Shown here piece by piece: positions 1 through 4,360 of a stretch of DNA of 4,360 nucleotides. The notes below the pieces were generated by a model, which saw nothing but the letters and a program-made list of their open reading frames with translations, had not been told where the DNA came from and made no database searches. The stretch is from a virus. Taxonomy: Duplodnaviria; Heunggongvirae; Uroviricota; Caudoviricetes. Numbering within the stretch: the first letter of the stretch is position 1; the number at the start of each line of letters is the position of its first letter. Made by a program: the position numbers and the translations under genes. The DNA is taken from IMG/VR virus record IMGVR_UViG_2645727868_000005; one strand, written 5' to 3'.

Positions 1-1537
1 CGGGAAATACACCGCACAGGATGCAACGACAGCACAGAAAGGGATAATCCAGCTAAGCAGCGCGACCAACAGCACGTCTGAAACGCTGGCGGCAACGCCA
101 AAGGCAGTAAAAGCAGCCAATGACAATGCTGAGAAACGTCTGCAGAAAGATCAGAACGGTGCGGATATCCCTGGCAAAGACACCTTTACGAAAAATATTG
201 GTGCCTGCCGTGCCTTCGGTGGGTCAGTAAGCACAACAACAGGAAACTGGACGACTGCACAGTTTATCGAGTGGCTGGATTCTCAGGGAGCATTTAACCA
301 TCCATACTGGATGTGCAAGGGTTCCTGGTCTTATGGCAATAATAAAATCATTACTGATACTGGCTGCGGTAATATTCATCTCGCCGGAGCTGTCATTGAA
401 GTAATGGGGATAAAGTCAGCGATGACGATCCGCATTACCACTCCGACCACATCCAGCGGTGGCGGAACAACCAACGCCCAGTTTACCTATATTAATCACG
501 GAACAGATTATTCACCTGGCTGGCGAAGGGACTATAACTCCAGAAATAAGCCAACGGCATCAGAGATCGGGGCGTTACCGTCAGGTGGAACAGCAGTATC
601 ATCAGTTAATCTGTCTTCAAAAGGTCGGGTAACCGCGCTGACAGACAATACGCAGGGGGCAACAGGTCTTGAGTTATACGAGGTGTATAACAACGGATAT
701 CCAACAGCGTATGGAAATATCATTCACCTGAAAGGGATGACAGCCGTTGGCGAAGGTGAGTTACTCATCGGCTGGAGTGGTACAAGCGGTGCTCATGCTC
801 CGGCATTTATTCGTTCACGACGGGATACGACCGACGCAAACTGGTCGCCGTGGGCGCAGCTTTACACCTCGGCTCATCCTCCTGCAGAGTTTTATCCAGT
901 CGGTGCACCAATCCCGTGGCCATCAGATACCGTTCCGTCTGGTTATGTCCTGATGCAGGGGCAGACTTTTGACAAATCTGCATACCCGAAACTTGCAGCC
1001 GCTTATCCGTCAGGCGTGATCCCTGATATGCGTGGCTGGACGATTAAGGGCAAACCTGCCAGTGGTCGGGCCGTATTGTCTCAGGAACAGGACGGCATTA
1101 AATCGCACACCCACAGCGCCAGCGCATCCAGTACGGATTTGGGGACGAAAACCACATCGTCGTTTGATTACGGCACTAAATCCACGAATAACATCGGGGC
1201 GCATACGCACAGTGTGAGCGGTACAGCCGCAAGTGCCGGAAACCATACTCATAGTGTCACAGGCGCATCAGCAGTCAGCCAGTGGTCACAAAATGGGTCA
1301 GTACATAAGGTAGTGTCTGCGGCCAGTGTGAATACAAGTGCTGCAGGAGCGCACACTCATAGTGTCAGCGGCACAGCTGCATCTGCAGGTGCTCACGCAC
1401 ATACTGTCGGTATTGGTGCTCATACGCACTCGGTTGCGATTGGCTCACATGGACACACCATCACCGTTAACGCTGCTGGTAACGCGGAAAACACCGTCAA
1501 AAACATCGCATTTAACTATATTGTGAGGCTTGCATGA
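1..1537 (+). CDS. stf: Side tail fiber protein, C-terminal portion (lambda Stf-like); 5' end lies upstream of the window
   Basis: The reading frame beginning at position 2 is open from the window edge to TGA at 1535-1537; the ATG at 311 in the ORF track is internal. The translation carries the conserved tail-fiber box [21 protein letters not shown] (nt 50-112), which I recall from P2 gpH and lambda Stf, a [55 protein letters not shown] segment, seven HxH repeats ([54 protein letters not shown]) and the C-terminus [15 protein letters not shown] that I recognise as lambda-type Stf. Confidence 0.9.
1106..1456 (+). repeat. Protein-level His-x-His repeat array in the tail fiber tip (diverged at DNA level, not a nucleotide tandem repeat)
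   Basis: Seven HxH motifs in G(A/S/N)H(T/A/G)H(S/T) contexts are encoded between 1106 and 1456. The two [15 protein letters not shown] copies use different synonymous codons, so this is an old in-frame duplication. Confidence 0.7.
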
Positions 1538-2436
1538 TTACGCTCATTCTTTCTGCACCAGTAACCGAAATGGCTGAAGCATTTAAGCGGGTATTTGCAA
1601 ATGCAGATAATGTGAATATTGTCGGAAAGCCATTTGAAACAATCAGAGAATTTGACTGCATGGTAAGTGCGGCAAATAGTTTCGGCCTGATGGATGGCGG
1701 TGTTGATGCCGCCATTACCACATTCTTCGGTTCTCAGCTACAGGCCCGCGTTCAGAATCATATTCTTCGTGAATATCTCGGCGAGCAGCCTGTAGGTTCT
1801 GCATTTGTTATTGAAACGGGGCATAATTATCACCCCTGGCTGGTACATGCGCCAACAATGCGTGTTCCGTTGACAATTGACGGAACAGACGCTGTATATA
1901 ACGCAACTTGGGCAGCTCTACTTGCTATCTTTCAGCACAATAAAAACGCAACGACAGACAGGAAAATAAAGACGGTGGTATTCCCTGCAATGGGAGCCGG
2001 ATGTGGTCAGGTGCCGTTTGAAAGCGTTGCCCGGCAGATGAAGCAGGCATGGGATAACTTTAATAAAAAAACAGAATCAATTAACTGGGAATACGCACAA
2101 TCCCGCCAGTCGGCAGTATTTGGCACATATGCATACTGTCCGGGTAATTCTGTTTGCCGTTATGCGGATACTAAATATATTGGATGCGGCGATTATCGGA
2201 CGTATTGCTCACGCTCCGGGCAGGTCTGTATTAACCCTGAACATCAGGCTGATGATGTACTGATACAACATCAGGCTAATAACCGGTTTCGCCCTGGTTC
2301 GCATATACACCGGATTAATCCAGAAAATCCTGTAGGTAATGTCATCTCTGGCGCACATAGCCACGGAAGTAGCATCGTTATTGGTGCTCACACCCATACG
2401 CTCAATAAACAATATTCTGTCTCTGATATTAAGTAG
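1534..2436 (+). CDS. Macro-domain (ADP-ribose binding/processing) protein fused to a Cys-rich, HxH-containing fiber-tip-like C-terminal module
   Basis: 300-aa ORF. Its ATG (1534-1536) overlaps the stf stop (ATGA, 1534-1537), with GAGG at 1525-1528 five nt upstream. Residues around nt 1654-1716 read [21 protein letters not shown], matching the macro-domain N-A-A-N...G-G-G-V...A-I box; nt ~1975-2010 encode [12 protein letters not shown], matching the second macro box (AFPAISTGVYG-like). The C-terminal part has five Cys in [32 protein letters not shown] and two HxH motifs (GAHSHG, GAHTHT). Stop TAG at 2434-2436. Confidence 0.75.
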
Positions 2437-2444
2437 AGGTGAAC

Positions 2445-3029
2445 ATGGATTTCAGAATGAGTGAACAACCACGGACCATAACAATTTATAATCTGCTGGC
2501 CGGAACTAATGAATTTATTGGTGAAGGTGACGCATACATTCCGCCTCATACAGGTCTGCCAGCAAACAGTACCGATATTGCACCGCCAGATATTCCGGCT
2601 GGTTTCGTGGCTGTTTTCAACAGTGATGAGTCATCGTGGCATCTCGTTGAAGATCATCGGGGTAAAACGGTTTATGACGTGGCTTCCGGCGACGCGTTAT
2701 TTATTTCTGAACTCGGCTCATTACCGGAAAATGTCACCTGGTTATCCCCGGAAGGGGAGTTTCAGAAGTGGAACGGCACAGCCTGGGTGAAGGATACGGA
2801 AGCAGAAAAACTGTTCCGGATCCGGGAGGCGGAAGAAACAAAAAACAGCCTGATGCAGGTAGCCAGTGAGCATATAGCGCCGCTTCAGGATGCTGTGGAT
2901 CTGGAGATCGCAACGGAGAAAGAAACCTTGTTGCTGGAAGCCTGGAAAAAGTATCGGGTGTTGCTGAACCGTGTTGATACATCAACTGCACCTGATATTG
3001 AGTGGCCTGCGGTCCCTGTTATGGAGTAA
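2445..3029 (+). CDS. tfa: Tail fiber assembly protein (chaperone), lambda Tfa family
   Basis: ATG at 2445 with SD AGAGGTG (2435-2441) five nt upstream. The product [79 protein letters not shown]...[11 protein letters not shown] is 194 aa and near-identical along its length to lambda Tfa ([18 protein letters not shown]...) as I remember it. The ORF track's GTG at 2439 is two codons upstream and overlaps the SD, so ATG 2445 is preferred. Confidence 0.92.
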
Positions 3030-3043
3030 TCGTTTTGTGATAT

Positions 3044-3090
3044 GCCGCAGCAACTTGTCATGGCAGGATACTGCGGCTGATTTGTGAATT
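3044..3090 (+). terminator. Possible weak intrinsic terminator or stem-loop between the convergent tfa and RT genes
   Basis: Perfect 7-bp inverted repeat GCCGCAG (3044-3050) and CTGCGGC (3071-3077) with a 20-nt loop, followed by the T-rich but interrupted TGATTTGTGAATTT. The long loop and broken U-tract make it weak. Confidence 0.25.
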
Positions 3091-3141
3091 TAAATAGTGT
3101 GTTTATTGCTTTATATATAAAGGATTTAATGGATTACATAT

Positions 3142-4260
3142 CTATGATATCCCTGAAATGTCCTCTTCAAGCTCTTTTACTGATTTCGCAATTTTAAATT
3201 TAAATTTTCTCTCTATTTCACTATTGCTAAGTTTTTTTTCATTCTCTTTCCCTATCCACATAGAAACAATTTCTCGTTTCTGAGATATATGTAGATTGTC
3301 AAAGTTAGGTATGTATTTAAAAGTCTCCGCTCTACCCCTGCGGAGTTCATAGAAAGTTTTAATCAAAGACTTTGGTTTTATTTCTGATGAAAGGCCGAAT
3401 CGGCGGATAAGATTATTGATCGTATGATTAACAGCTCGAAGTTGAGCTGTTGACGTTATTTGTGAGAAGTACGATACCCATCCCAATCGTTTACCTTCAA
3501 ACACACATCCCGTAATTCTAAGATTTAGTTTCCACTGACAATATGCAACAGCTCGTTCTTTATCGTGCTTATTTTTAGCTTGTAGTAGAGCGTGTCTATA
3601 TGCAGTAAAAATTTTTGCTAAGGATGACTCAAATCTAAGAATGCTCTCATGTTTTATCAATAATTCTCGATTTTTTATGTGGTAGCCCAAAAAGTTGAAA
3701 CTTTCATCCAAGCTGCCTACTTTGGATTTTGAGTTCTCTTCATTTAATGGATGTGGGTTTAAATTTAATGATTGAAGCTTATCAATGATATGAGATGCAA
3801 TTTTTGTTGCTTGATCTTTTTGCGTTAAAATAAGAATGTCATCAACGTATCGCATGTACCATATGTCATGCATTTTATTGATTTCATTGTCGAAATCAGA
3901 TAGTGATATTTCAGCTAAAATGTTTGATATTGCTAACCCCTGAGGTACTCCTCTGGTATTATTAGGGACACCTTTGCTTCCTGTACTTCCACTTACAGTA
4001 GGCACGATTAATGATGATGTTATTAACTGCCTAATTTCTTTTTTTCTAATCTTATTTTTTATTGCATTAAATATCAATTTATGTTCAATTGAAGGATAGA
4101 AACTTTTGAGATCTATTTTTGCATATTCAGCATATAGATCGCTGTTTAATGCATTTTTCAATAAGTCAATTACTGTATGTGGTAGTTTTAATCTGGAGTT
4201 AGGATATATTTCTGTAAGGCATACCAGATTCGCCCGGATCTTCCGAAGTTGTTTCCACAC
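3142..4260 (-). CDS. Reverse transcriptase, compact single-domain prokaryotic RT (candidate defence-associated RT; class unresolved)
   Basis: 372-aa minus-strand ORF from GTG (plus 4258-4260) to TAG (plus 3142-3144). RT motifs present: motif 1 IDLKSFYPSI (plus 4087-4113), motif B RGVPQGLAISNILAEISL (GVPQG at plus 3937-3951), motif C YMRYVDDILIL (YVDD at plus 3838-3849), motif 7 FNFLGYHI. An in-frame TGA lies 11 codons upstream of the GTG with no other start in between. The gene is AT-rich (roughly 30-35% GC) against about 50% GC in the fiber genes. Confidence 0.85.
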   Translation of the reverse strand: MWKQLRKIRANLVCLTEIYPNSRLKLPHTVIDLLKNALNSDLYAEYAKIDLKSFYPSIEHKLIFNAIKNKIRKKEIRQLITSSLIVPTVSGSTGSKGVPNNTRGVPQGLAISNILAEISLSDFDNEINKMHDIWYMRYVDDILILTQKDQATKIASHIIDKLQSLNLNPHPLNEENSKSKVGSLDESFNFLGYHIKNRELLIKHESILRFESSLAKIFTAYRHALLQAKNKHDKERAVAYCQWKLNLRITGCVFEGKRLGWVSYFSQITSTAQLRAVNHTINNLIRRFGLSSEIKPKSLIKTFYELRRGRAETFKYIPNFDNLHISQKREIVSMWIGKENEKKLSNSEIERKFKFKIAKSVKELEEDISGIS

Positions 4261-4300
4261 ACCGAAAAGAACGCAGCTTAAATTTCCATTTCACGCTCTT

Positions 4301-4330
4301 TAACAATAAGCAATCAACTTAACAGTCAAT
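4301..4330 (-). promoter_or_regulatory. Candidate sigma70-like promoter for the RT gene (speculative)
   Basis: On the minus strand, TTGACT (-35-like; plus 4324-4329) is followed 15 nt later by TATTGT (-10-like; plus 4303-4308), about 45 nt upstream of the GTG start. Spacing is slightly short and the -10 match is 4 of 6. Confidence 0.2.
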
Positions 4331-4350
4331 TCAAACTAAAGGAGTCAATT

Positions 4351-4360
4351 ATGCAACCAC
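4351..4360 (+). CDS. 5' end of an unidentified plus-strand gene (M-Q-P...), divergent from the RT; continues beyond the window
   Basis: ATG at 4351 preceded by strong SD AAAGGAG (4338-4344) at 6-nt spacing. Only three codons are visible, so no product call is possible. Confidence 0.3.

Follow-up and report, generated by a model that had tools for sequence, protein, structure and literature searches.

The window studied here, a 4,360-bp stretch of DNA (IMG/VR virus record IMGVR_UViG_2645727868_000005), is one entire draft contig, LJYB01000073.1, of the Escherichia coli assembly GCA_001306605.1. It runs from the tail fibre genes of a lambda-like prophage into AT-rich DNA with a reverse transcriptase (RT) gene. 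We explain it, with a probability of about 0.85, as a module boundary of a mosaic lambda-like prophage that carries a truncated cargo. The cargo is the remnant of a DRT10 cassette. DRT10, also named UG17, is a tripartite anti-phage system made of a non-coding RNA (ncRNA), a SLATT-domain protein, and an RT (Tang et al. 2025, PMC12632851; Sanchez-Nieto et al. 2026, bioRxiv 10.64898/2026.04.29.721553).

In this explanation, the GC-normal tail fibre operon (stf, macro, and tfa) would end at a conserved hairpin (3044–3077). An accessory slot would follow, extending to the dinI-like/int/att end of the prophage. The slot would take the position of the lambda b region and hold interchangeable AT-rich cargo transcribed leftward, and this cargo would be swapped by recombination at the module boundaries, not by transposon-like insertion. 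In the lineage of this contig the cargo would be a DRT10 cassette (promoter, ncRNA of about 140 nt, the membrane effector SLATT_5, and UG17 RT). The cassette would then have been cut inside the RT gene, and a join at 7 bp of microhomology would have placed RT codon 98 next to the 3′ end of a Cro/YdaS-like gene that belongs to another lambdoid immunity type. Such a join would have removed RT residues 1–97, the SLATT gene, the ncRNA, and the promoter, leaving a very recent RT pseudogene.

A truncated DRT10 cassette and its probable join to a Cro-like gene

The DRT10 RT makes tandem-repeat cDNA in a protein-primed reaction, using the ncRNA as template (PMC12632851). All three parts of the system are needed for defence (PMC12632851; bioRxiv 10.64898/2026.04.29.721553). 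For the 456-aa RT Eco3DRT10, the C-terminal residue, Ser456, is the priming residue (PMC12632851). An intact cassette is present in a prophage of the ST131 strain THO-003 (L001), and NZ_AP022525.1 carries the intact ST131 locus at 2,263,000–2,266,000. Here the gene order is J, lom, stf, macro, and tfa, then on the opposite strand RT, SLATT, and a dinI-like pseudogene, and then the host gene yecD. The L001 RT is 456 aa long, has a YVDD motif and a C-terminal serine, and matches the RT_UG17 profile from end to end (1–429, 8e-159). Its partner is a 183-aa SLATT-domain protein (SLATT_5, 2.3e-28; RTasSLATT, 2.8e-57). In the RefSeq annotation, the start of the RT gene overlaps the 3′ end of SLATT_5 by about 23 bp. 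The ncRNA region (L001 13046–13200, minus strand) is predicted to form a structure of about 140–150 nt with a basal stem and four hairpins (−53.9 kcal/mol, z −3.96). The basal stem pairs GGAUGGGGCAG with CUGCCCCUUCC, and a U-run comes after the hairpins (region 13046–13232, minus strand). A promoter-like site, TTGACT-18-TGnAATAAT, stands directly upstream. Together, the promoter-like site, ncRNA region, SLATT_5, and UG17 RT make up a native cassette of 2.2 kb and about 33% GC.

This arrangement is the published SLATT–RT (UG17-A-like) architecture, and the fold fits the ncRNA description in PMC12632851. Peptides of the window RT are present among the UG17 loci tabulated by Tang et al. 2025 (PMC12632851). 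The ST131 RT and Eco3DRT10 have the same length and the same terminal Ser456; the accession of Eco3DRT10 was sought in the supplements of Tang et al. with no match, and identity of the two proteins could not be confirmed. A search of the L001 ncRNA region against Rfam 15 returned no matching family. The northern-blot probe for the E3659 ncRNA has no match to the ST131 ncRNA region, and the E3659 ncRNA is therefore a different sequence variant.

The window contains only part of this cassette. A mechanically called open reading frame (ORF) of 372 aa with an RT domain is open from 4260 to 3142 on the minus strand. Its PADLOC match to RT_UG17 (3.5e-117) covers only profile positions 97–429 of 429, with Drt3a as the next best match (9e-35), and its Pfam RVT_1 match starts at position 49 of 205. 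A sequence search of solved structures returned distant RTs only, the best being Drt3a (1.7e-10). Judged by these profile scores, the RT is unambiguously assigned to the UG17 clade. The DNA of the remnant (3142–4222) is 100% identical to the intact 456-aa gene of L001, and the window and L001 have zero mismatches over 708–4222. The ORF as a whole consists of a GTG and 12 codons antisense to the Cro-like gene, followed by RT residues 98–456. These 13 unrelated codons stand in place of RT residues 1–97 (including ...IPRQISIPTARDRITLRAL), which carry the fingers (RT motifs 1–2). The SLATT_5 gene, the ncRNA, and the promoter-like site of the cassette are also absent from the window, and Cro-like sequence lies where SLATT would sit. 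The catalytic YVDD (in YMRYVDDILIL) and the C-terminal serine are retained, the ORF ending in ...SGIS. Direct reading of the sequence found no Shine–Dalgarno motif upstream of the GTG, and a consensus promoter scan of the minus strand upstream of the remnant, within the window, found no site. Because defence needs all three DRT10 parts, the remnant is almost certainly inactive, a loss of function judged from the missing parts.

At the truncation point the window passes into unrelated homology. From 4216 on, it matches at 99.3% identity a stretch found in about 1,585 genomes, which comprises the 3′ end of a Cro/YdaS-like gene, the intergenic region after it, and the beginning of a ydaT-like gene. 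On the plus strand, 4216–4281 encodes KAYQIRPDLPKLFPHTEKNAA and a stop codon, which is the exact C-terminus of the 76-aa regulator WP_001067459.1; at the DNA level, at least 1,464 genomes match this gene end at 99.3%. The RT-side and Cro-side homologies share the 7 bp AAGGCAT (4216–4222). We infer that the join arose in vivo by illegitimate recombination. In 54 complete E. coli genomes, ST131 in many cases, a match to the window begins at base 1 with 99.8% identity, and all of these matches end at about 4228. The cassette's own prophage was considered as the origin of the Cro/YdaT piece and rejected, as 4223–4360 has no match in 60 kb of the ST131 prophage with the intact cassette. That prophage has a different immunity region, and the two sides of the junction therefore come from different prophage types. 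Since the remnant shows zero substitutions relative to the intact allele, the event would be very recent, or else artefactual.

Several points weigh against our explanation. The join is known from one short-read assembly, on a contig that ends 138 bp past the junction, and the only contig recorded for the chimeric protein, WP_283234776.1, is this one. The junction is not spanned in any complete E. coli genome, and a junction 50-mer (about 4194–4243) is absent from the genome, viral, and metagenome contig collections. The hairpin at the left boundary did not register in a simple consensus scan for intrinsic terminators. Lastly, there is the question of the ultimate donor; a low-GC origin of the cassette is possible but unsupported.

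The junction could instead be a chimera that arose in assembly or in the library, such as a template-switch product. In the true genome, the DRT10 cassette after tfa would then be intact, and so would a separate Cro/YdaT prophage region. The single 4.36-kb draft contig with its short extension past the junction, and the failure to find the junction anywhere else (in the collections searched, complete E. coli genomes, or protein records), would both fit such an artefact. The same is true of the complete identity of the remnant to the intact allele, the different prophage types on the two sides, and the microhomology at the joint; microhomology is also typical of in-vitro chimeras. However, an overlap of 7 bp is too short for a k-mer misjoin. 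The contig also passes the junction unbroken and unbranched, which suggests that there was no competing path into the RT N-terminus, and disrupted alleles of this RT are frequent in E. coli. We consider a chimera unlikely, but it is a serious alternative that keeps a real share of the probability.

Other broken alleles are on record in the RT protein cluster from E. coli. A 432-aa allele, on 9 contigs, has a C-terminal frameshift that removes the priming serine. Alleles of 288 aa and 275 aa are N-terminally shortened and lie on contigs of up to 90 kb. In the absence of SbcB, UG17 is toxic, and the toxicity is relieved by insertions in the RT (bioRxiv 10.64898/2026.04.29.721553; PMC9226505). 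The disrupted alleles suggest recurrent inactivation, in line with the reported SbcB-dependent toxicity, which is a plausible selective reason for loss of the RT.

If the join is real, the truncated RT might still be alive. Upstream of it there is now the antisense side of a cro/cII-like control region, the place of the CII-activated promoter pRE in lambda, and the RT could be expressed on induction, perhaps as a dominant-negative or a decoy against DRT10-type systems. Alternatively, the join might record the purging of a toxic DRT10 with the lysogeny module. We think both of these ideas very improbable.

An earlier note on this DNA had described horizontally acquired cargo from a low-GC source, which we read as a complete, stand-alone RT gene (3142–4260) taken directly from a low-GC donor, with natural edges at the tfa stop and at about 4225. 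The ORF is indeed open from 4260 to 3142, its GC content is about 33% with 26% at third codon positions (GC3), and GC rises again at 4225–4280. This account is nonetheless refuted as to edges and gene completeness, and as a whole it retains hardly any probability. What had been taken for the first ~12 RT codons is not RT, since 4223–4281 is Cro-like coding sequence on the other strand and the RT_UG17 match begins only at profile position 97 of 429. The intact allele, identical up to 4222, is 456 aa long and is preceded by SLATT and the ncRNA. The supposed island edge at about 4225 is thus a truncation junction inside the RT gene, and the native island, as seen in L001, runs about 1 kb further, through the RT N-terminus, the SLATT gene, and the ncRNA. 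No target-site duplication was found. As for a low-GC donor, all cargo in the slot is AT-rich whatever its kind, and the closest distant orthologues found are 52–54% GC.

The GC step and the accessory slot after tfa

The best single change-point in GC content, by maximum likelihood, falls after base 3079. GC is 49.3% before it (1–3079) and 32.9% after it (3080–4360), and the log-likelihood ratio of 50.1 compares with a maximum of 7.6 in 200 shuffles. In 60-nt lines, mean GC is 49.2% (range 32–60%) for 1–3029 and 32.6% (range 17–42%) for 3061–4216 (Mann–Whitney p = 6e-9). The AT-rich block (3078–4216) is 32.0% GC, and GC3 is 26% in the RT frame versus 40–48% in stf, macro, and tfa. The sharp discontinuity noted earlier is borne out by these computations, but its placement exactly at the tfa stop codon (3027–3029) is not. 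The step lies 50 bp further on, at the 3′ foot of the hairpin, and bases 3030–3077, hairpin included, are still 52% GC. The left side had been described as 50–58% GC. It is not uniformly so, with the macro gene at 45.6% and dips to 35–39% at both edges of that gene. The GC-richer stretch reported at 4225–4280 holds up as well, at 50% GC, a level reached by only 0.09% of 56-nt windows inside the AT-rich block. Beyond 4280 the right flank is only about 40% GC. The right-hand rise coincides with the homology breakpoint at 4216–4222.

The earlier suggestion of cargo inserted at the end of the fibre operon agrees with the distribution of the AT-rich block, which is accessory, and comparison with related prophages places it outside the core genome. 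The cassette is found in 197 of 5,426 complete E. coli genomes, in every case on the chromosome, and 188 of the 197 have 80% or more of it. A query with the tfa 3′ end (window 2850–3250) finds homologues in 4,636 genomes. The query for the empty site was a synthetic sequence with the tfa end joined to the dinI-like gene; 405 complete genomes have an empty slot, with tfa and dinI-like flanks within about 490 bp. In one of these, strain A20, tfa is followed by 115 bp with the same kind of hairpin and then by dinI-like, int, and dusA. The tfa of the window is 94–96% identical to that of lambda and of prophages without the cassette, and beside this gene the slot is empty, filled with other cargo, or occupied by DRT10.

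Gene orders in L001, L003, L006, and L038 place the slot between tfa and the att/int side. In lambda, AZ187, and PhiR29_1, homology to the ST131 locus stops inside the hairpin, at L001 11052–11058 (window about 3052–3058). In AZ187 it restarts at L001 13259, in the dinI-like gene, which makes the variable segment 2.2 kb in ST131. AZ187 has instead a 1.7-kb segment of 31% GC for a 410-aa ea47-like protein, and the slot of PhiR29_1 is filled with other cargo. The AZ187 cargo (L006 5181–6890) matches phrog_19262 (E 4e-293) and is equal in length to lambda Ea47; its 410-aa protein has no Pfam or PADLOC match. It apparently lies between two hairpins (CCGCAG...CTGCGG): a lambda-type one follows tfa, and an A20-type one precedes the dinI-like gene.

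The cassette also occurs beside unrelated fibre genes. In such prophages, namely L003 (strain AR434) and 15 of 20 IMG/VR loci, homology to the window starts at 3044, the first base of the hairpin. At the other end, L003 matches both the ncRNA region and the dinI-like gene, as do the IMG/VR loci that extend far enough; the right joint of the native cassette is at the dinI-like stop codon. The hairpin folds with −18.8 kcal/mol on the plus strand and −17.5 kcal/mol on the minus strand (z −3.7). Its outer stem is unchanged in the five contexts compared, and changes on both sides leave the pairing intact at four predicted pairs, of which three lie in the inner stem. It may act as a terminator or as an exchange point.

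The lambda b region has the same position, between tfa, which it directly follows, and att/int. Over the 4 kb that come next to lambda tfa, GC is 35.8%, versus 54.7% in the left arm before them; classical denaturation maps show the AT-rich b2 region. As in the 'moron' accessory modules, a concept reportedly put forward by Juhala, Hendrix, and colleagues in 2000, the cargo is AT-rich and leftward, the GC step comes past a hairpin, and the module is present or absent among similar phages. The b region of lambda carries ea47, ea31, and ea59, whereas the window carries a truncated DRT10 cassette. The sharp GC step is thus the normal state of lambda-like phages. A further parallel is AbiP2, at the hypervariable locus of P2-like prophages (PMC9226505), also a defence RT of the UG/Abi lineage within variable cargo by the tail fibre genes of a temperate coliphage. 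AbiP2 differs in phage family, in RT clade, and in having no SLATT partner, and the window RT scores as RT_UG17, not as AbiP2.

The AT-richness had been traced to a low-GC source, which is not shown by the comparisons made here. The nearest non-enteric RT orthologues found, in Pseudomonas and Stutzerimonas, have 57–61% amino acid identity, 52–54% GC, and GC3 of 58–66%. Since these orthologues are 52–54% GC, AT-richness is not imposed by the protein, and the Pseudomonas and Stutzerimonas relatives are not low-GC donors. Because every cargo seen in the slot is AT-rich, the composition reflects the accessory gene pool of the phages, with no identifiable donor. The RT is rich in Lys, Asn, and Ile, which could in principle force a low GC content whatever the lineage of the DNA. 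Yet GC3 is 26% here versus 58–66% in the Pseudomonas orthologues, and the non-coding spacer at 3078–3141 is 20% GC, so that this source of the AT-richness is most unlikely.

Insertion by a transposon- or integron-like element, with its own recombination machinery and a target-site duplication, is very improbable. In its favour, the motif ATTTAATG(G)AT occurs near both native cassette ends (L001 11124 and 13211–13212) and resembles TTGAATGAT of the empty site; that motif occurs twice more inside the RT gene, many other 10–11-mers repeat in this AT-rich DNA, the cassette genes include no transposase, integrase, or other recombinase of their own, and the boundaries fall at a hairpin and at a gene end. 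The AT-rich 10–11-mers at the native cassette ends match no better than the AT-rich background, and they were rejected as a target-site duplication and put down to chance because they recur inside the RT gene.

Other features of the contig

Positions of all features are given in Table 1.

Table 1. Features of the 4,360-bp window, from left to right
Feature	Position	Strand	Evidence or remark
stf (side tail fibre), 3′ part	..1537	+	Leftmost gene in the window
macro-domain gene, 300 aa	1534–2436	+	Pfam Macro 5.9e-19; phrog_2613
tfa, tail fibre assembly; last gene of the GC-normal late operon	2439–3029	+	48.9% GC; Pfam Caudo_TAP 1.7e-44
tfa 3′ flank, common to lambda-type phages	3030–3043	+	Alignment; lambdoid matches reach 3052–3062
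GC-rich hairpin (GCCGCAG...CTGCGGC) where the tfa and RT genes converge; left module boundary	3044–3077		Folding, conservation
AT-rich spacer, hairpin to RT stop codon	3078–3141		20% GC; conserved alongside the cassette (L001, L003, 20 IMG/VR prophage contigs)
UG17/DRT10 reverse transcriptase gene, 3′ remnant (codons 98–456 and stop)	3142–4222	-	PADLOC RT_UG17 3.5e-117; DNA identity to L001
7-bp microhomology AAGGCAT, joint of RT remnant and Cro-like gene	4216–4222		Three-way alignment; first mismatch to L001 at 4223
Cro/YdaS-like helix-turn-helix regulator gene, 3′ end (last 21 codons and stop; 5′ 55 codons absent)	4216–4281	+	Translation identical to the C-terminus of WP_001067459.1 (L002)
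Non-RT head of the 372-aa ORF: GTG and 12 codons, antisense to the Cro-like gene	4223–4260	-	Alignment, direct reading
YdaT-domain (CII-like) gene start (MQP...), running off the contig end; ATG at 4351	4351–4360	+	Sequence comparison

The macro gene is absent from several of the loci compared. In PhiR29_1, AZ187, and A20, stf is directly followed by tfa, and none of the 20 IMG/VR loci (0/20) has a match to the gene. The His-rich fibre motif at the stf 3′ end recurs at the 3′ end of macro (1394–1428 versus 2362–2396, 74% identical). Homologues of macro adjoin tail fibre genes in Gifsy-1, in Salmonella phages SEN4/SEN5, and in Escherichia phage Chuche. With GC dips to 35–39% at both its edges, the gene looks like a second, older insertion.

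Within stf, all five substitutions that separate the window from the ST131 prophage (L001) fall in the 133 bp from 575 to 707, a cluster that suggests a small patch of recombination within the fibre gene. The Rfam family RF02111 ('IS009') has a full-length match at 2788–2986 on the plus strand (218.5 bits, gathering score 117, E 1.8e-54). This match lies wholly within the tfa coding sequence, and what RF02111 models is apparently part of a protein-coding prophage gene. Between the Cro-like gene and ydaT, a direct 8-mer repeat, AGTCAATT, was seen by eye at 4324–4331 and 4343–4350 (19 bp apart). The second copy overlaps the ydaT ribosome-binding site, and the repeat may be a candidate regulator binding site.

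Consequences for DRT10 in E. coli

Both the AT-rich b-region slot and its DRT10 cargo were already known, and the only new detail is the truncated chimeric copy. The locus illustrates the known point that defence cassettes sit in the AT-rich slot after tfa of lambda-like prophages. A sharp GC step at this slot does not, on its own, identify a low-GC donor. For annotation, WP_283234776.1, recorded as a 372-aa 'RNA-directed DNA polymerase', is a chimeric ORF that ought not to enter counts of defence systems or of stand-alone RTs. Provided that the join is real, it would be one more case of the recurrent inactivation of the SbcB-dependent, potentially toxic DRT10 in E. coli.

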